IMG/VR virus record: IMGVR_UViG_3300011336_000323 | Coordinates: 1-33,066 of that record | Direction: 5' to 3' (one strand) | DNA from: a virus | Taxonomy: Duplodnaviria; Caudoviricetes | DNA length: 33,066 nucleotides | Shown here: positions 2,850-18,839 of the stretch, piece after piece | Position numbering within the stretch: position 1 is the stretch's first letter | Layout of the letters: each line of letters begins with the position of its first letter | The notes under the pieces: generated by a model | Told to the model about the DNA's origin: nothing | Database searches by the model: none | The model's input: the letters and a program-made list of their open reading frames with translations, nothing else | Translations under genes and position numbers: made by a program

Positions 2850-3747
2850 ACCCGCTGTCTGGTATGTTGTCGTAGCCTATCAGCACAGTTCCAGGCCGCG
2901 GCGCAAAGCTCAAATTGGCAGATGACATGTCTAGCGCCATCGCAGCCTCTAGCTCATATAAGTAGTTGCGATACATCGCCGTGGTGTCAAAGCCCTTTGC
3001 TTCAAAGTATTTTAACTTTGTCGACAGCACTATCAGCCGGTCAGGGTAAATTGTCGTGTCAGTGTCCACCGTAAAACTGGTCTTTACAGCCCCGGCAGCA
3101 GAATTAGCCCAGCCGTTAGACCGGTATTCGTAACCAAGATACTCAGCCGCGGACGTGCCCGGCCAGATTTGGAAGTAAGAGCCCAGCAGGCGCCAACGGA
3201 TCCGCGGGCCGGTCGAGATGTAGCCCGACAGAAGCCATTCCCATTGTTGCGCGTCCTCTGGCCCCAGCATCTCCCAGTGTTTGCTTTTGTCCCACATGCT
3301 GCGCGGCACCAAAGCCTCGTAATCGCTCGGCAAGTCGTATTTCATTTTCTGAAAGTAGGCAGTAGCAGAAGCCCCGCCAGCGGCTGCAAAGTCTTGGTCA
3401 AGCGTAACCTGCGTTCCGCTGTCTACAGACGCTATAAACGTGTTCTGGTTGATTCCAGACCCCTGCACCTGCCAAGTCGTGTCCAGCCCAACAGTCGACG
3501 GAATGCCGGTAATCGTCCTGGCTGCCGTGGTCCAGTTGCCGGTGGTGGTCAGATACTCGGTATAGAAAGCCTTTTGCTTCGTCATTGCGCGCCAGTTGTG
3601 CCGGCGCAGCAGCTCGTAGCCCGTTGCGTTCATCAGCGCAAGTATCTGGATTACGTCCTGATTTGTATTGCCAGCAACCGAAACGGGCGTAGACACGCCT
3701 AGTTCGTTTGTTACCTGCTGCACCAGCTGAAGCATCGTGCTCGACAT
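2836..3747 (-). CDS. Head-tail adaptor (tail tubular A-like)
   Basis: N-terminal 'TMLQLVQQVTNELG', 'YDLPSDY' motif, synteny. Confidence 0.6.
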   Translation of the reverse strand: MSSTMLQLVQQVTNELGVSTPVSVAGNTNQDVIQILALMNATGYELLRRHNWRAMTKQKAFYTEYLTTTGNWTTAARTITGIPSTVGLDTTWQVQGSGINQNTFIASVDSGTQVTLDQDFAAAGGASATAYFQKMKYDLPSDYEALVPRSMWDKSKHWEMLGPEDAQQWEWLLSGYISTGPRIRWRLLGSYFQIWPGTSAAEYLGYEYRSNGWANSAAGAVKTSFTVDTDTTIYPDRLIVLSTKLKYFEAKGFDTTAMYRNYLYELEAAMALDMSSANLSFAPRPGTVLIGYDNIPDSGYGPN

Positions 3748-3749
3748 GT

Positions 3750-4283
3750 TTACGCCTCTTTACGCGGCCTTCCGGGCTTTCTGGTTTCCATCAGCATCGC
3801 CATCTGTTCTTTAAGCTCGTTCAGCTCGCGGCGCGTGGTTTCCAGCTCGGTGGTATTTGCGGATTGGTTTTTCCTGTTCAGATAGGCGCGTGCTCTGTCT
3901 CTCAATCCAGCGCCGCCCATGCCGATGCGTTGCAGCTGGCTGTCAGACGCCGTTGCTACTTGCTCAACGGTTTGGAATTTGAGGATCTGTAGCTCGGCCA
4001 TTTGGTGCTGGTTGAAGCCCTCGTTATCGTCCGTGTTCCATTGCTCTAACATCGTGCCAATAACCGGACCGTCGCCGCTTTGCATTTGAAAATACAGCCA
4101 CTGGCGCGGGAATCGCTCCTTGTGATCTTCCCTGACCGGCTGGTCAACAATGTTGGTTTTGTCACCCGGCACAACAATACGCACGAACGGCGTCGGACGA
4201 TCCTTATACGGTTTCTGATCGTTGACGTAAAATTCAACATGCAAATGCGAATCCGCGTTATGAACATCACTGTCTAAAGCCAT
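3750..4283 (-). CDS. Hypothetical head-region protein with HhH-like segment and C-terminal coiled coil
   Basis: 177 aa ORF with RBS AGGAG; 'FQTVEQVATASDSQLQRIGMG'. Confidence 0.6.
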   Translation of the reverse strand: MALDSDVHNADSHLHVEFYVNDQKPYKDRPTPFVRIVVPGDKTNIVDQPVREDHKERFPRQWLYFQMQSGDGPVIGTMLEQWNTDDNEGFNQHQMAELQILKFQTVEQVATASDSQLQRIGMGGAGLRDRARAYLNRKNQSANTTELETTRRELNELKEQMAMLMETRKPGRPRKEA

Positions 4284-5028: not shown

Positions 5029-5823
5029 TTAAATCCTTTGAGTTAGTGGATAAGACATGGCTTTCGCCATTGCGTGCAATAAACCGGGACCGCAGACCTC
5101 AATTACAACATCTTCCTGCGCAAACTCGCGGGCAAGGTTTTGGAAATCTCTTACCTGCTGGCACATCCACGGCGCAGCCTTGTATTTCGTTTCGTGGATA
5201 GTCGCAGTTATTACGTTCTCGCCGTCGTTTGATTCTTGCTTGTAAACGTGGTGCTCGCCCTCGGAATAGCTGGAGTCCATGCCAAACAGATAGATCTGCC
5301 GATAGCCTTTTAGCTTCGCCAAAATCATCGCCAACATGCCGACCGTTGTAAAGCCGCCCATAAGGTGCACAGGACGCGCTCTCTCGCTCTCCAGATACTC
5401 GTAGACCCCTTCTGTCTGCACGTGCACCAGATCGACGTTAAAGCCGTCTAGGGCGTCGAATATGCAGGGATCGCATTGGCTGGCAATATAGAACTGAGTT
5501 TCTAGCTTGGGATTCTGCAGAAACCGCACATTCTCCGGCCTGGCGTCCAGCATGACATGCGCGTCCGGCACGATGCCGCGGGCAAGCAGCCAGTCATATG
5601 ATCCGTTTACAGACCAGATTTTAGCGCCATTCTGGTGTCGAATCATTAGCTGGTGCACCGACTCATTTAGACTCGGCGCACCGCCAACGATGCAAATGCT
5701 TTCGCCGTTCGGCTCCGTATCGAAGTCGAACCAGGTCAACTGCCTTTCACAAGACAGTTTCACATTCCCCAGCATTACGCCGGGGTCTGTGTTTCCAACT
5801 ACATCTAGTATAGCTTCGACCAT
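5029..5823 (-). CDS. DUF115/Maf (MptE-like) putative glycosyltransferase
   Basis: 'ICIVGGAPSL', 'SVNGSY..L...GIVPD.HVMLD', 'GG.TTVG..A..LA...GYRQIYLFGMDSS' motifs. Confidence 0.7.
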   Translation of the reverse strand: MVEAILDVVGNTDPGVMLGNVKLSCERQLTWFDFDTEPNGESICIVGGAPSLNESVHQLMIRHQNGAKIWSVNGSYDWLLARGIVPDAHVMLDARPENVRFLQNPKLETQFYIASQCDPCIFDALDGFNVDLVHVQTEGVYEYLESERARPVHLMGGFTTVGMLAMILAKLKGYRQIYLFGMDSSYSEGEHHVYKQESNDGENVITATIHETKYKAAPWMCQQVRDFQNLAREFAQEDVVIEVCGPGLLHAMAKAMSYPLTQRI

Positions 5824-6389: not shown

Positions 6390-7310
6390 TTATGCAATCA
6401 GCACGCCGCAAAATTGCGGGCCGCTGGAGCAAAGATTGCCCGCCCAGCCGATCAATTTAACGATGGCGTCCTGGTTGACGGCTTGCCGTTCGCCGCCGAT
6501 CGGTACGAAATTGCGGTCAACGTGCGGCCGGAAAAAAATGTATTTCGTATTGAGGAACCACATGTGATTCGCCGTTGCAGCCGAACCGATACCGCCATCG
6601 AGCACAACGTCCGATGCCATGCCCGCGCCGTAGTATTTCAGCGAGGCAAAACCAGCACCAGCCATCGAGCTACCAGAATCCGAAATGCGCTGAATAGATT
6701 GCAGCGATTGCAGATACAGACGATAGTAGTTATTGTCAGCAACGATCAGATCCGGTTTGTCGGTTCCGCGAATCAGCTGAACAGCGACCGAATCCATGTA
6801 TTGCTGGATGTTGGAGGCCGTCACGGCCGCGCCGCCGTTCGTCACGCCGGAGTAAGCAACCGATTGCCAGAACGAATAACTGGCGCGGTTGATACCGCCG
6901 TAAGTGCCGGAGGTAGGCGCATCAGGAACAGCCGCCGCAAGACCGGTAATGTTCTTGCCGCTGTTGCCCGTTCCATCCAGATAGATGTCGCCGGAAATGC
7001 GGTTAGCCAGTTGCGCTTCGGCAACGTTCATACGACCGTCAAGCAGGTCGATAATCGCTTCCTTGCCGCTGTTCTGAATCATCTCCAGACCGCTGATCGA
7101 TACCGCAGCAGCGTACTGAGTTATACCAAACTGCGCCGCACTGATCGGGCTGTTTTGGCTGACGTTCAGCACTTCATAGCCACTGTAGCTATTAGTATTG
7201 TTCGTCGTGCTGTCGTTATACATTACCTCTTGCAAGATGACGTTACCGCCAGAGAACGTTTTCACGTTTCCGCGTTCTTTCAACCTGCGCAGAAGCGCGT
7301 TGTTATTTGT
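6390..7310 (-). CDS. Major capsid protein, exon 2 (TNNNALLRRLKERG...GVLIA)
   Basis: Downstream of scaffold; HK97-type MCP character; joins exon 1 in frame as ...ELADNV|TNNNALL...; spliced product ~333 aa. Confidence 0.9.
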   Translation of the reverse strand, partial: TNNNALLRRLKERGNVKTFSGGNVILQEVMYNDSTTNNTNSYSGYEVLNVSQNSPISAAQFGITQYAAAVSISGLEMIQNSGKEAIIDLLDGRMNVAEAQLANRISGDIYLDGTGNSGKNITGLAAAVPDAPTSGTYGGINRASYSFWQSVAYSGVTNGGAAVTASNIQQYMDSVAVQLIRGTDKPDLIVADNNYYRLYLQSLQSIQRISDSGSSMAGAGFASLKYYGAGMASDVVLDGGIGSAATANHMWFLNTKYIFFRPHVDRNFVPIGGERQAVNQDAIVKLIGWAGNLCSSGPQFCGVLIA

Positions 7311-8004
7311 CCTAGTGTTATGTTTCGGCTCTTTATCCGAAACCTGCACATTCCTTTTATGTGCAGAGCAGACTATCTCATCGCAAGTTTTTCGCTCGCT
7401 TGGTGGCGCTAATCTTTGCGCCATGCATTTTCGGCTTTCCAAGCTGCGCCAATCTACGTTTTAAGTTGCTTTCCGCGCTGGGCCGGTAGCCATTCGCTAC
7501 CCTTGCCGCTGCTGCTTTTGCTGGGGCCCCTGGCGGTGGTCTAAATGAAATTTCATTTTCATTTAACAAAAGACCTTGCGCGCCATATTGCCGCATCCAA
7601 GCTATTTCGCGTTCGCGCTTCTCAATCACTGAAACCGTGTCCGGCATTGTTTCAAGCACTTTCATTTGAAACAGTCCGGCGTGATCGTTCCACGCTGCTT
7701 GCAACCTTCTAGAAGTATGCTTACCGGCTTTTAACAGGCTTCGGTGCTCTCGCATCCTTTTACCCGGTTTGCCTGCTGTGCAGCCAATATACGCTGCCCC
7801 AGTGCTCGCATCTTCCAATCCGTAGATCGTTACCATTTGGGATTCCCCTCTGTGGTTAATACTTGCGCTCCGCGCTCGTGGGGTTTTGCTTCCGCATCGC
7901 CCTAGTCGTTACACCTTCAGCGCCCTTTTAACTGCGCCGCTTGGCTCGGTGTTGGCATCTCAGCTTTTCACCGAATTCACGGAGTTTTTTAACGTCTAAT
8001 GTTA
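7311..8004 (-). ncRNA. Group I self-splicing intron (694 nt, IA-like with P7.1) in the major capsid gene
   Basis: 5' splice site after U with U.G wobble in P1 (AACGUU^UA-ACAU-UAGACGUU); P3 CUCCGUG/CGCGGAG; P4 UCGGUG/CACCGA; P7 GACUA/UAGUC in contexts GUAACGACUA and GAUGAGAUAGUC; P8 CGCAAGU/ACUUGCG enclosing an ORF; P9 CUGCACAU/AUGUGCAG and GUUUCGG/CCGAAAC; terminal G at 7311. Confidence 0.92.
7378..7836 (-). CDS. Intron-encoded GIY-YIG homing endonuclease
   Basis: 'TIYGL..(9)..AYIG', 'KRMREH', 'EREIAW', 'LLN' motifs; basic NUMOD3-like C-terminus; located in the P8 loop. Confidence 0.88.
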   Translation of the reverse strand: MVTIYGLEDASTGAAYIGCTAGKPGKRMREHRSLLKAGKHTSRRLQAAWNDHAGLFQMKVLETMPDTVSVIEKREREIAWMRQYGAQGLLLNENEISFRPPPGAPAKAAAARVANGYRPSAESNLKRRLAQLGKPKMHGAKISATKRAKNLR

Positions 8005-8085
8005 AACGTTGTCGGCCAGCTCACCGCTACGACTTTGAATGTTAGTCGCGATGATGTCGCTGATCGAAGAATTGGCAAAAGCCAT
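8005..8085 (-). CDS. Major capsid protein, exon 1 (MAFANSSISDIIATNIQSRSGELADNV)
   Basis: RBS GGAGA upstream of ATG 8085; 27 codons followed at once by the in-frame TAA that begins the intron. Confidence 0.9.
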
Positions 8086-12152: not shown

Positions 12153-12440
12153 TTATTTGTTTCTTTCGCTGATTGCTGCGGCTTTACTCTTGGCGTCGGC
12201 CTTGCTGGATGCACCCCACGCCCGCAACGCAAGCGCCAGGCGCGTCGGTTCGCCGTTCTTTTCCATCGGTCCCGGCATACCGCCCATGCGCGCAAGAAAA
12301 CTGGCACGCCGCGGGTTATCGCCAGCTTTAACCGGTGGCTTAAGCGTGCCGCCAGTCTCGGCCTTGTAACTCGCTCGGCCTGCGGCGTTTAGTCCACCGG
12401 CAGGATTTTTTCCTTCTTTTCGTGTCCAGGCTGCGCTCAT
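12153..12440 (-). CDS. Small basic phage protein (DUF6321-like)
   Basis: 'EGKNPAGGLNAAGRASY...RRASF.ARM' motif. Confidence 0.6.
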   Translation of the reverse strand: MSAAWTRKEGKNPAGGLNAAGRASYKAETGGTLKPPVKAGDNPRRASFLARMGGMPGPMEKNGEPTRLALALRAWGASSKADAKSKAAAISERNK

Positions 12441-13045
12441 TTTGTGAATATCACATCCCTGTTTACCCGGTCGGCAATCTTGTATCCCATATCGGCCAGT
12501 AGGTTGATCGTGTCCTCGTCGGTGTAGCCGTATCGCTCGCCGTGGCCTTTCAGCTCTAGCGTAATCACCGGCCAGCTCGCCTCTATCGTTGCCAAAGCGC
12601 CTAAGATGGCTAAGTGTTCGTAACCCTCAACGTCAAGTTGCAGCAGGTCGCAATCGGTCACGCCCAGGCTGTCAATTGGCAGGACGTCAAACTCTGCGCC
12701 CTCTTTGATCTGGTGCGCGCCGATGTTGTCGGGGAATATCTGGTCTATCGCTGCCTTGCCGTGGTCCTTGCCAAACGCAGCCCGCCGAATCACTATCCGC
12801 GGGTGACTGTCGGTATTGAGCGCCAGCGCCTCGTAGTTGGCTGCGTCAGGTTCAAGGCTGTAGACGCGTTTAAACTTCTGCGCCAACGCCACCGGATACA
12901 CACCCACGTTGCCGCCTGCCTGTATTGCCGTCCTAAACTCCCGGCACAGATCAAGACTAGCGCCCAAGTCGCACACCTCGGCCAGCACTGCCTGAATGCA
13001 GCACTGGTCAGCGTCAGGAACCGCCCAGCCCTCATGCAGTCGCAT
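12437..13045 (-). CDS. FkbM-family SAM-dependent methyltransferase
   Basis: 'AIQAGGNVGVYP', 'SLEPD..NYEAL..N', 'DLLQLDVEGYE...ILGA..TI....PVI.LE'. Confidence 0.85.
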   Translation of the reverse strand: MRLHEGWAVPDADQCCIQAVLAEVCDLGASLDLCREFRTAIQAGGNVGVYPVALAQKFKRVYSLEPDAANYEALALNTDSHPRIVIRRAAFGKDHGKAAIDQIFPDNIGAHQIKEGAEFDVLPIDSLGVTDCDLLQLDVEGYEHLAILGALATIEASWPVITLELKGHGERYGYTDEDTINLLADMGYKIADRVNRDVIFTK

Positions 13046-13628
13046 ATTGCACCCTCGTCTGCTCCCACGGCCGCGGCTTGCCGTGAAACGCAATAAGCCT
13101 ATCCTCGGCCTGCACCCCGTTTGGCAGTATGTCGGCCTTGAATGACTTGATGCCAGGCGTAATGTCCTGCCAGTATTTAACCAGCCGGCCAGCCAGCGCC
13201 CACTCTAGATAGACCTGATCACCCCCTTCGCAGTAGCGATCGCCCGCCTTGAATGCGTCGTAAATGAACTTGTGCGGCTTCGACCACCACATCAGGCTGG
13301 ATTGCATCGCGCGCGGATCCGCTTTGCCGCGGTAAACGTCGCGCATAATCACAAAGTCGTGCGGCCTAGCGGCCTCTAGCAGCTCTGTGCAATCGCCCAC
13401 CAGAACGGTGTCTAGATCCATGTATAGGGCGCTCGGCAGCCGGAATAGCTCGATCTTTGACCACCAGCCCGGCCAGTCGTGGTCGAGCGCCAGCGTCGGG
13501 CAGTCCAGCTCCATGTCGGTTAGGCAGATAAACTCCTCGGCCGGCAGGAATTGCGCGCACATCTCCTGCAACGCATAAACGTGCGCTGGCTTGAATTCAC
13601 CGCCCGACTTTAAGACGCAAGCGATCAT
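13032..13628 (-). CDS. GT-A fold glycosyltransferase (GT8-like)
   Basis: 'GWWSKIELF', 'LYMDLDTV' (DxD), 'GGDQ', 'FHGKPRPW'. Confidence 0.8.
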   Translation of the reverse strand: MIACVLKSGGEFKPAHVYALQEMCAQFLPAEEFICLTDMELDCPTLALDHDWPGWWSKIELFRLPSALYMDLDTVLVGDCTELLEAARPHDFVIMRDVYRGKADPRAMQSSLMWWSKPHKFIYDAFKAGDRYCEGGDQVYLEWALAGRLVKYWQDITPGIKSFKADILPNGVQAEDRLIAFHGKPRPWEQTRVQYATA

Positions 13629-16549: not shown

Positions 16550-17807
16550 AGAGTACTTTAAGGTCCTGATCACCCAGATCTTTACTCACGGAGTATGGAC
16601 CTTTGTGAGCATGTTGCTTCCCGCTTAATCAGCTCACAAGATGTAGATCAGGCTTGGCTCGCGCTGGCTTTGTTTCTTGGCCCGCACCTTTTTTCACTGC
16701 GTTCAAAACAAGACCAAAGACCATTTCATCAAGCTCTTCATCAGCCACATGCAACTCGGCTGCAATATCGGATTTCGCAACACCTTCTTTTCGTAATGCC
16801 GTAAAGACTTTTCCGAGGATCTGCGATGTTTCACGCGGCAAACTCTCGGGCTCAGACTTAAGGTAGCCTCGTCGACTAATTTGCACAAAAAGCTCGCGGT
16901 ACTGCCATTCCGTCAATAGCCCGAGTTTGTGCATTCGATAGGTCAGTGCCGAAATCGACACTCCCCATATCTTTTTGAGTTGGAGCAGCACATCGATCGA
17001 TATGAATTTTGGCGCATAGCCTAGGACACTTCCGGATGGCATCAGGAAAGCTGCTGCAAAATCATTCGCAGCTCTTTCGATTTCTTGCCCTCCATTCGGA
17101 GAGCCGTGGCGATGCATCACGAGATGGCCAAGTTCATGCGCAGCATCAAATCGGCTGCGCTCAGTATTTTTAAGTGTGTTTAAAAAAACAAATGGCTTTT
17201 GTTCACGCCACATTGAAAATGCGTCAACCTCAGCTGCATCGATTGCCAGCGAAAAAACACGAACACCATTTGCTTCAAGCAAATGAATCATGTTCTTAAT
17301 GGGCAATTCTCCGATGCCCCAGTGGCGGCGCAGACTTGCAGCCGCCGCCTCGGGGTCGGAATCTCTCAGATCCGGCAAATTTGAAACAGGGAGCTCGAAT
17401 CGTCTTTCAATTGCTTGATTCAGCGTGATTGTTAACGCACCTGAATACAAGGCCATATCGCGCTGCGCTGCAGACATTTTTGAGAGCGAACGGAAACTCG
17501 CAGCACCACTATCAATGGTTTGCAGTTCTTCTTCTTGATAGAAAAACTCCAGAGGAAAACGCAATGCTTTTGCAATACGCTGGACAGTGTCCTCTGAAGG
17601 TTTGTACTCCAGTTTTTCAAAACCAGAGATCGATCGCATCTCTACGCCGACCTCATCAGCCAGTCGTGTCATGGTGAACCCTCGCCGCTTTCTGGCGAAA
17701 GTTAAACGCGTTGGATTGAACATAGCCCTATCCGTTAAGCACGTCGAATCAATGGAATATCGATATCTGGCAGATTTGGAACCATTGGGACAGGGATCAC
17801 CAAATGG
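16550..17807 (-). other. Apparent captured bacterial DNA segment inserted into the Ref-like gene (boundaries approximate)
   Basis: Contains the 3' stub of an upstream gene (...VPNLPDIDIPLIRRA*), an intact HTH-ImmA gene and a possible 5' stub of a downstream gene; Ref similarity stops abruptly at ~17807. Confidence 0.6.
16629..17723 (-). CDS. XRE-HTH + ImmA/IrrE (COG2856, peptidase M78) metallopeptidase, 364 aa
   Basis: 'MFNPTRLTFARKRRG.T...LA' HTH; 'RSRFDAAHELGHLVMH' HExxH; 'EIERAANDFAAAFLMP'. Confidence 0.9.
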   Translation of the reverse strand: MFNPTRLTFARKRRGFTMTRLADEVGVEMRSISGFEKLEYKPSEDTVQRIAKALRFPLEFFYQEEELQTIDSGAASFRSLSKMSAAQRDMALYSGALTITLNQAIERRFELPVSNLPDLRDSDPEAAAASLRRHWGIGELPIKNMIHLLEANGVRVFSLAIDAAEVDAFSMWREQKPFVFLNTLKNTERSRFDAAHELGHLVMHRHGSPNGGQEIERAANDFAAAFLMPSGSVLGYAPKFISIDVLLQLKKIWGVSISALTYRMHKLGLLTEWQYRELFVQISRRGYLKSEPESLPRETSQILGKVFTALRKEGVAKSDIAAELHVADEELDEMVFGLVLNAVKKGAGQETKPARAKPDLHLVS

Positions 17808-18008
17808 CCGACTGCAAAACTCCGCAGTTTTAACCCCGCTGGCGTGGTGACTGTAGCAAAGCCCGATCGTTTGCAAATGTCCCATTCTCTGCCCGCCGGA
17901 CAACAAATGATGCACGCAACACGGAACAAAACCATACCCCTCGTTCCGGCAGACAATGCAGCCCAGGTCGGCCACGGCAGCCATCCAACCTTTCTCAACT
18001 TTGGTCAT
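17808..18008 (-). pseudogene. Ref-family (recombination enhancement, HNH-like) nuclease, C-terminally truncated or fused
   Basis: 'VADLGCIVC', 'VHH', 'HLQTIGLC..HH' motifs; the expected C-terminal helix is missing and the frame runs on into the ImmA gene. Confidence 0.7.
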
Positions 18009-18333
18009 ACCGATCCGGCGCCGGGACTTTAATACCGGCATGGTGCGAAGCAGCATTCAGCCAGTCCAGCCATTCCGAAAACCGTTTTTTACCGTAGCGG
18101 CTCGTCCTCCGCCCCAACATCACAATGCCGCCCTCGAGCCCCGGCGCCAGCCTGGGACTGGTGTCCCCTTCAAACGCCGCAGTCAGAATATCCTTCCATT
18201 CTTCGCTAGAAAGCGATTGCAACGATCCATTGACCGGCCATTGGCGTTGCCCTGCCCACGCTTCTAGAATTGGCCACATCGCTGCATTAGCTGATTGACT
18301 TCTACGTTCTTCGCAAATTGGACAATTATTCAT
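17995..18333 (-). CDS. ninB: NinB/YbcN-family recombination protein (short form)
   Basis: 'RS...NA.MW', 'EEWKD', 'GL.GG.V.LG..TS......FSE' motifs; ATG overlaps the HNH stop. Confidence 0.7.
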   Translation of the reverse strand: MNNCPICEERRSQSANAAMWPILEAWAGQRQWPVNGSLQSLSSEEWKDILTAAFEGDTSPRLAPGLEGGIVMLGRRTSRYGKKRFSEWLDWLNAASHHAGIKVPAPDRYDQS

Positions 18334-18839
18334 ACAATAATATATCCCCAAATTATCCCCTTGCGAATGCAACTAATTGTTGCTTTGCAAACGCCGTATT
18401 TGTTGCTTAATTCTTTGCTAAGACCAAACTTGTAATTTTTTAGTTCTTGTTTTATTTCAATAACTTGATGTTCTTTTAATTTGGTTTTTCCGTTAGCAGA
18501 CCCGCGTAATGGTTTATTTAAACCAAGCTCAAAAGAATGTTGAACATTGCGCGCTTTTGAAACCCATTCCAAATTTGACGGGTGGTTGTTAGTTTTTATT
18601 CCATCAATGTGATTAATTTCAACGGTATTTTCAGATTGCGGAATCCGAGCCATTGCAATTAAACGATGTGCCATGAATCGTTTAATGCCGTTTTCATTTG
18701 CTATTTTGATTCGCAAATAACCTTGTTTTGTTAAATAAGGACACATTGCTTTTGGCAATTTTCGACGAAAACTAAATATTGTTCCGCGCTCATCCACCAA
18801 ATAATCTAAATAGCCCGGTATTGGCATCAATTTTTTCAT
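18330..18839 (-). CDS. Free-standing HNH homing endonuclease
   Basis: 'HRLIA', 'INHIDGIKTNNHPSNLEWVS...N..H', C-terminal HTH; markedly AT-rich. Confidence 0.9.
   Translation of the reverse strand: MKKLMPIPGYLDYLVDERGTIFSFRRKLPKAMCPYLTKQGYLRIKIANENGIKRFMAHRLIAMARIPQSENTVEINHIDGIKTNNHPSNLEWVSKARNVQHSFELGLNKPLRGSANGKTKLKEHQVIEIKQELKNYKFGLSKELSNKYGVCKATISCIRKGIIWGYIIV

Follow-up and report, generated by a model that had tools for sequence, protein, structure and literature searches.

The 33,066-base stretch of DNA analysed here, which we call the window, is a whole record of an uncultured freshwater phage (completeness estimate 94%), and its major capsid gene is interrupted by a 694-nt insert that, judged from its sequence, appears to be a real and probably active mobile group I intron. 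Very probably, the insert splices itself out of the transcript and full-length capsid protein is made, while the endonuclease it encodes cuts intron-free capsid genes, into which the intron is then copied.

Results

The split capsid gene

The capsid gene shares one minus-strand block of the window with the portal and terminase genes. Its parts are as follows.

8097-8094 (-): Shine-Dalgarno-like GGAG, from the sequence, 8 nt upstream of the capsid start codon
8005..8085 (-): major capsid exon 1, 27 codons from the ATG at 8085; last codon GTT at 8005, supplying the U of the predicted 5' splice site
8002..8004 (-): in-frame TAA, the first intron codon, from the sequence
7311..8004 (-): group I intron, 694 nt, phase 0, terminal G at 7311; from continuity, helices and covariation
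6390..7310 (-): major capsid exon 2, 306 codons plus stop; from profile matches, Mx8-like identity and the HK97-type fold of an intronless twin

The protein start encoded by exon 1 is identical in intronless relatives, for example locus L002. The reading frame resumes at 7310 (TNNNALLRRL), and removal of the insert (8004-7311) yields a 333-aa HK97-type capsid protein whose sole stop is terminal. Exon 2 matches phrog_9953 (E 8e-97, from profile position 29) and NF033394 (capsid_maj_Podo; 276 bits, above the profile cut-off), and is about 50% identical to the capsids of Mx8, Mx9, BUCT555 and a Bradyrhizobium phage. The structure model of L002, the intronless twin with a 99.7% identical capsid, matches HK97-type capsids. 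The first-pass annotation had described a podovirus-type major capsid gene with these splice points and this joined product, and every coordinate it gave holds. Since a podoviral structural set is attributed to Mx8 (PMC10386132), the window virus may fairly be called a podovirus.

That annotation had also proposed an alignment with intronless homologues. Of the 80 capsid relatives that match best, 71 read straight through DNV|TNNN, eight carry an insert at the same base and one starts too late to be informative. One stored locus (L001) is 100% identical to the window across 6,918 nt, a separate contig (L244) carries the identical intron, and 34 distinct intron versions occupy the codon-27 site in the first 249 loci plus the window; thus, the insert is not an assembly artefact.

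The capsid family is abundant: each junction pattern matches approximately 1,000-1,200 viral sequences. Among the runs that contain at least half of the words sampled from the window are riverine, freshwater and aquatic metagenomes. Capsid-bearing contigs of metagenome-assembled genomes (n=15) are spread over unrelated phyla, and the nuclease gene is absent from all 15.

Anatomy of the predicted ribozyme

The insert is classed as group I by its anatomy, without a curated Rfam hit. The sequence-level hallmarks of the class that we looked at are present, apart from a clear P10 and an Rfam score above the cut-off. The elements recognised are listed below.

7991..7996 (-): internal guide sequence, pairs with exon 8010-8005 (P1); G7996 opposite U8005, the last exon base
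7984-7978 / 7874-7868 (-): P3, both-sided changes in 4/7 pairs; encloses P4 to P7.1
7974-7969 / 7951-7946 (-): P4, both-sided changes in 1/6 pairs
7964-7955 (-): P5 tetraloop hairpin, pairs in the window
7945-7943 / 7915-7913 (-): P6, pairs in the window
7939-7918 (-): P6a, both-sided changes in 5/6 pairs
7909-7903 (-): P7 5' strand, pairs with the 3' strand
7902-7881 (-): P7.1, both-sided changes in 2/5 pairs of the P7.1 region
7861..7867 (-): P8 5' strand, pairs with 7388-7382; both-sided changes in 3/7 pairs
7370..7375 (-): P7 3' strand (guanosine-binding helix), compensated variants in distant members
7368-7367 / 7313-7312 (-): P9.0, 2 bp, pairs in the window
7366-7344 (-): P9 hairpin, pairs in the window
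7343-7322 (-): second P9 hairpin with a conserved 8-nt loop, pairs in the window

Both the P4-P5-P6 domain and the P3-P7-P8 core, with its guanosine-binding G-C pair and bulged base, are present, and the helices named at first pass (P1 with its U.G pair, P3, P4, P6, P7, P7.1, P8 and two P9 hairpins) do pair. Across an alignment of 25 copies, pairing holds in 97.7% of cells, and both sides change in 22 of the 67 pairs; none of 500 shuffles reaches 22 pairs, a test inflated by kinship among the copies, and slid controls give 1-6. These closely related copies show no variation in P1, P6 and P7, and G7311 and the 2-bp P9.0 are found in 25/25; the P7 variants of distant members are compensated. The folding signal is strong for the 3' domain (z -4.1), the 5' part alone reaching only z -1.5.

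The covariance-model search proposed at first pass fell short: RF00028, the sole Rfam match in the window (8014-7862, 27.4 bits, E 0.003), stays below its gathering score of 50 bits and ends before the ORF. Other copies at site 27 score 24-35 bits, and capsid introns elsewhere that have no ORF in P8 score 47-68, except one at 22. For Bastillevirinae introns, too, covariance models often match only one side of the endonuclease loop (PMC11878797).

The wider family comprises 90 distinct introns from 168 loci with the junction, among 191 nuclease-bearing loci, many of which were fetched repeatedly; in the other 23 loci, many of them near contig ends, no junction was found. The search demanded a U before the intron and a terminal G, so that these two letters are not independent findings; an earlier junction-pattern search was too loose, with a capsid match in 7/120 loci. 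A guide of at least six pairs is formed in 88 of the 90 introns, in 10 exon/guide types, and the other two have one mismatch (by eye). The first intron codon is a stop, TAA or TGA, in 89/90. Pairing with the 3' exon (P10) is common in group I introns, not universal, and here its longest run is at most 4 bp in 79/90. The second P9 hairpin (7322-7343) bears an 8-nt purine-rich loop that is kept in 88/90 family introns and is also seen in introns at other sites (L030, L220).

P2 is absent from the intron. Subgroup IA introns have an additional helix, P7.1, between P7 and P3, and by this criterion the window intron, which has P7.1, would fall there. P2, P7.1 and P7.2 are named as subgroup criteria (PMC3984707), and the scheme is reported to fit phage introns poorly (PMC11878797).

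A real group I intron might nevertheless need a protein helper, either a host chaperone or an encoded maturase, and fail to splice alone. The missing P2, the weak P10, the low Rfam score and the z of -1.5 for the 5' part all speak for such dependence, as does a conserved basic C-terminal part of the nuclease that matches no assigned family. We consider it unlikely, because the catalytic core is complete and compensated, and because sister introns without an ORF at other capsid sites (L209, L220) share this kind of core with no protein of their own.

Among four sets of metatranscriptome contigs we found a weak hint of splicing. In one X18 contig the sequence passes position 8005 (GTT) and continues with 30 bases that match the exon-2 start of the intron-bearing loci L224 and L241 exactly, whereas the best of 318 empty sites has two mismatches and GTA. 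An X18 intron fragment, of another subtype, differs from the window at 3 positions where L224/L241 have 22. The hint consists of a single contig, with no DNA run from the same sample. The one joint listed across the intron, in two runs, bears GTA; it represents an intronless allele, not a GTT splice product, and was rejected as evidence of splicing.

The encoded endonuclease

The loop of P8 holds an ORF, as the first-pass annotation had noticed, preceded by a small hairpin.

7378..7836 (-): GIY-YIG endonuclease ORF, 152 aa, in the P8 loop; PF01541
7839..7848 (-): RBS hairpin, 3 bp and a 4-nt loop, overlapping the endonuclease Shine-Dalgarno, 2 nt before the ATG

The ORF overlaps the core: the 3' strand of P8 is made by its final codons, and the TGA (7380-7378) falls within J8/7. 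The protein exceeds the cut-off of Pfam PF01541 (26.8 against 22.6 bits) and resembles the I-TevI catalytic domain by sequence (E 1e-5). Residues Y5, Y16, G18, R27, H31, H40, E77 and N92 are invariant in 34 close copies; from the roles of I-TevI residues we take them to form the active site. E75A appears in the PDB title of an I-TevI structure. The predicted fold matches the I-TevI catalytic domain (1mk0/1ln0) with TM 0.88 on the target, a comparison covering the catalytic domain only. The conserved C-terminal part matches no DNA-binding family in Pfam or NCBIfam, and neither a zinc finger nor an I-TevI-type DNA-binding domain was detected.

The nuclease is maintained. All 34 close copies are full length, dN/dS is 0.07-0.20 in 11 pairs, indicating purifying selection, and PF01541 is found in 61/61 aligned relatives; the protein database holds 414 relatives. 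The Mx8-like capsid gene is where all 49 close nuclease loci lie, along with 61 of the 66 distant loci, whose identity goes down to 36%. The five exceptions are three short contigs with an exon-1-like end upstream, one partial and one weak match. The nuclease belongs to a capsid-specialist family.

The RBS hairpin has three Watson-Crick stem types across 85/90 introns. Such hairpins are described for I-TevI to III, and loss of the I-TevI hairpin impairs splicing (PMC2988022, PMC3073962); since the window hairpin is much smaller than that of I-TevI, an equivalent role is something we infer. Alternatively, the element might be a DNA operator. The coding strand of the intron yielded no promoter for the nuclease, and promoter and terminator scans gave no excess over shuffles.

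Distribution and mobility

Of the 225 capsid proteins in the tree, 54 are intron-bearing, and intron presence changes 34 times; shuffles give a mean of 49 and a minimum of 43, with tree sampling that depended on the intron label. Many intron alleles have an empty neighbour at 97-100% capsid identity. Identities of the two proteins are discordant in both directions: at L035 the capsid is 92% and the nuclease 50% identical, and at L294 the values are 47% and 68%.

The flanking exon carries a further trace. In the 150 nt 3' of the site, the per-base difference is 0.123 for ten intron/empty pairs and 0.056 for 29 empty/empty pairs of similar distal divergence. The ten pairs are few and related; their raised divergence is of the kind that co-conversion would predict. 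Exon 1 ends in GTT in all 57 close intron alleles, but in only 26 of 318 empty sites, and homing would therefore usually overwrite that base. The low GTT at the site fits the general context of Val before A (30/257).

At codon 27, the rare Val codon GTA is found in 34/70 alleles of the window's clade, against 69/1,311 other Val codons, and in only 5/120 K-motif alleles. A nuclease-resistant GTA allele as a general signal was ruled out by the K-motif set and by the Val-before-A context. The GTA excess in L002-L080 alleles may reflect either a founder effect or clade-specific escape from the nuclease.

Patchiness of this sort could also come from repeated loss instead of gain. It is improbable that the intron still splices while homing has been lost, an old invasion having been followed by repeated precise loss. 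Recombination with intronless alleles would give patchiness as well; against this stand the 34 full-length nuclease genes with dN/dS near 0.1 and the discordance between nuclease and capsid identities.

An intron at two neighbouring sites

Insertion is after codon 27 in 74 family introns and after codon 28 in 16. The codon-28 group needs six changes on the nuclease tree (at least four of them forced) and eight on the tree of the 5' ribozyme core, and a single codon-28 clade is rejected by the AU test for the nuclease (p 0.0007) and more weakly for the 5' core (p 0.03). These were quick trees from a subset of 59 nucleases and 57 cores, with most copies above 80% identity omitted; the 3' core has too few columns for a usable tree.

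A tentative reading, which we hold for possible but not for probable, is that one intron-nuclease family has repeatedly shifted its site by one codon, the guide being rewritten each time and the nuclease serving both sites. The same trees could arise if two old intron lineages had recombined and swapped nucleases; in nuclear rDNA, endonuclease genes are described as moving between introns at adjacent sites (PMC1299323). The repeated one-codon shift, if true, would offer a natural series on how group I introns gain new sites.

The same capsid gene also contains other group I-like introns, near codons 13, 84, 71, 150 and 310, L225 holding three. Their coordinates are L030:1898-2761; L209:3200-3460; L220, L225 and L228 at about 3160-3440; L224:2505-2745; L225:4160-4405; and L231 at about 3880-4125. 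RF00028 gives 68 bits for L030, 64 for L209, 47 for L220 and L225 and 22 for L224, with no match for the codon-310 insert. Read by eye, the intron at codon 13 (L030, about 1900-2470) seems to contain a cysteine-rich ORF in antisense, located ahead of P3 and not in P8.

Near-identical intron 5' ends were seen at three capsid sites: L224 (about codon 150), L524/L534 (about 52) and L558 (about 60). The comparison, made by eye over the first 60 bases or so, suggests recent movement between sites, possibly by reverse splicing. At L482, what resembles an insertion sequence, free of group I motifs, disrupts the capsid gene near codon 97.

Discussion

How the intron may work

Exon 1 ends at an in-frame stop, removal of the insert restores the 333-aa protein seen in intronless relatives, and helices and guide covary. 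From group I chemistry, ribosomes would halt at the TAA while the guide holds the U.G splice site, a guanosine bound in P7 would attack that site, and the terminal G would direct exon joining. On the T4 precedent, the RBS hairpin may limit translation of the nuclease through P8 and J8/7, which would hinder folding. The nuclease would cut intronless capsid genes of co-infecting relatives, leading to homing, and co-conversion of the flanking exon would also supply the U required at the last exon base.

By analogy, the window intron would work like the mobile introns of T4 td/I-TevI and SPO1. With T4 td it shares a GIY-YIG domain, an ORF end overlapping the ribozyme core, an RBS hairpin and a stop at the 5' splice site (PMC2988022, PMC3073962). 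I-TevI lies in P6, has a zinc finger and a larger DNA-binding domain, and its host gene td is not structural, whereas the window nuclease lies in P8, has 152 aa with a short C-terminal part and a 3-bp RBS hairpin, and sits in a structural gene. The SPO1 DNA-polymerase intron (PMC3073962) and the Bastillevirinae introns (PMC11878797) are likewise of phage subgroup IA type, and in SPO1 the ORF lies in P8 and overlaps it. Their nucleases are mostly HNH, and their hosts are genes for polymerase, terminase, thymidylate synthase or reductase, not capsid.

Passenger or regulator

That a virion's most abundant protein is interrupted had led the first-pass annotation to propose that ribozyme splicing throttles or times head assembly. 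This idea is unsupported, because the intron is missing from most relatives (71 of the 79 close ones that are informative), and its presence is patchy on the capsid tree. Regulation may gain something from a review that cites T4 intron splicing as dependent on translation and host growth state, so that an incidental coupling is conceivable. Near-identical capsids occur with and without the intron (L002, 99.7%), and the window contains no Rfam riboswitch, nor any Rfam match besides RF00028. The capsid intron of phage LittleE is spliced and its virions contain full-size capsid protein, as published (PMC3706429); the in-frame stop and RBS hairpin are features that reviews call splicing-protective (PMC2988022, PMC3073962). 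Unlike a domesticated intron, this one is neither fixed in a lineage nor coupled to a sensor RNA. We regard regulation of head assembly as very improbable; that the intron acts as a selfish passenger is the best explanation.

Relation to known capsid-gene introns

The implied rarity of introns in capsid genes did not survive comparison with the literature. For LittleE, RT-PCR together with sequencing of the protein N-terminus demonstrated splicing of a major capsid intron (Pope et al. 2013, PMC3706429), and that paper cites a further capsid-gene intron in lactococcal Tuc2009. The LittleE intron resembles ours in its exon-1 U, terminal G, internal endonuclease ORF and intronless relatives. It differs in being a single example, 819 bp long, from a siphovirus and with an antisense HNH/LAGLIDADG-like ORF, whereas the window intron has a sense GIY-YIG ORF in P8, interrupts an Mx8-like podovirus capsid gene and has 90 distinct family members. 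In crAss-like Delta/Zeta phages, group I introns are typical of core genes including that for the major capsid protein, with several introns per gene in some genomes, as in the capsid genes described here (Yutin et al. 2021, PMC7886860). Those are large gut phages of Bacteroidetes, and their introns were found via endonuclease domains.

Group I introns in capsid genes are thus known, and the known picture of phage introns is unchanged; what is new is their extension to small Mx8-like podophages. A literature search, covering mainly the main texts of openly available papers, returned no report of introns in the Mx8-like capsid family. Compared with named phages, the intron DNA gave just two weak Bacillus phage matches.

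The family constitutes a large natural alignment, offering guide-exon covariation, two sites 3 nt apart, a compact nuclease and a covarying RBS hairpin.

Consequences for annotation

About one close allele in ten is split, so that automatic annotation truncates or mis-starts a marker gene; the Rfam cut-off, for its part, misses the intron. The false N-terminus anticipated at first pass is indeed produced: a plain ORF call starts inside the intron, at an in-frame TTG at 7442, and returns a 350-aa ORF. The chance that this is the true product, of a broken gene or an assembly artefact whose exon 2 is translated unspliced from within the insert, is negligible: some in-frame start precedes exon 2 in 55/90 introns, but the frame upstream shows no conservation, its open length varying between 1 and 237 codons, exon 1 is conserved and has an RBS of its own, and the insert recurs in independent assemblies. 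A conserved internal start was accordingly rejected, 35/90 introns having none.

Other genes of the window

Several other minus-strand genes were observed. A 475-aa ORF at 16629-18056 (-) joins the N-terminal part of a RecA-dependent nuclease (aa 18-107) to an HTH and an IrrE-like peptidase regulator; it looks like a regulator cassette inserted in a nuclease gene. A free-standing HNH endonuclease gene (PF13392, phrog_59) lies at 18330-18839 (-). Within the virion block, 5029-5823 and 12437-13628 (-) hold MptE-like, FkbM methyltransferase and glycosyltransferase-like genes.
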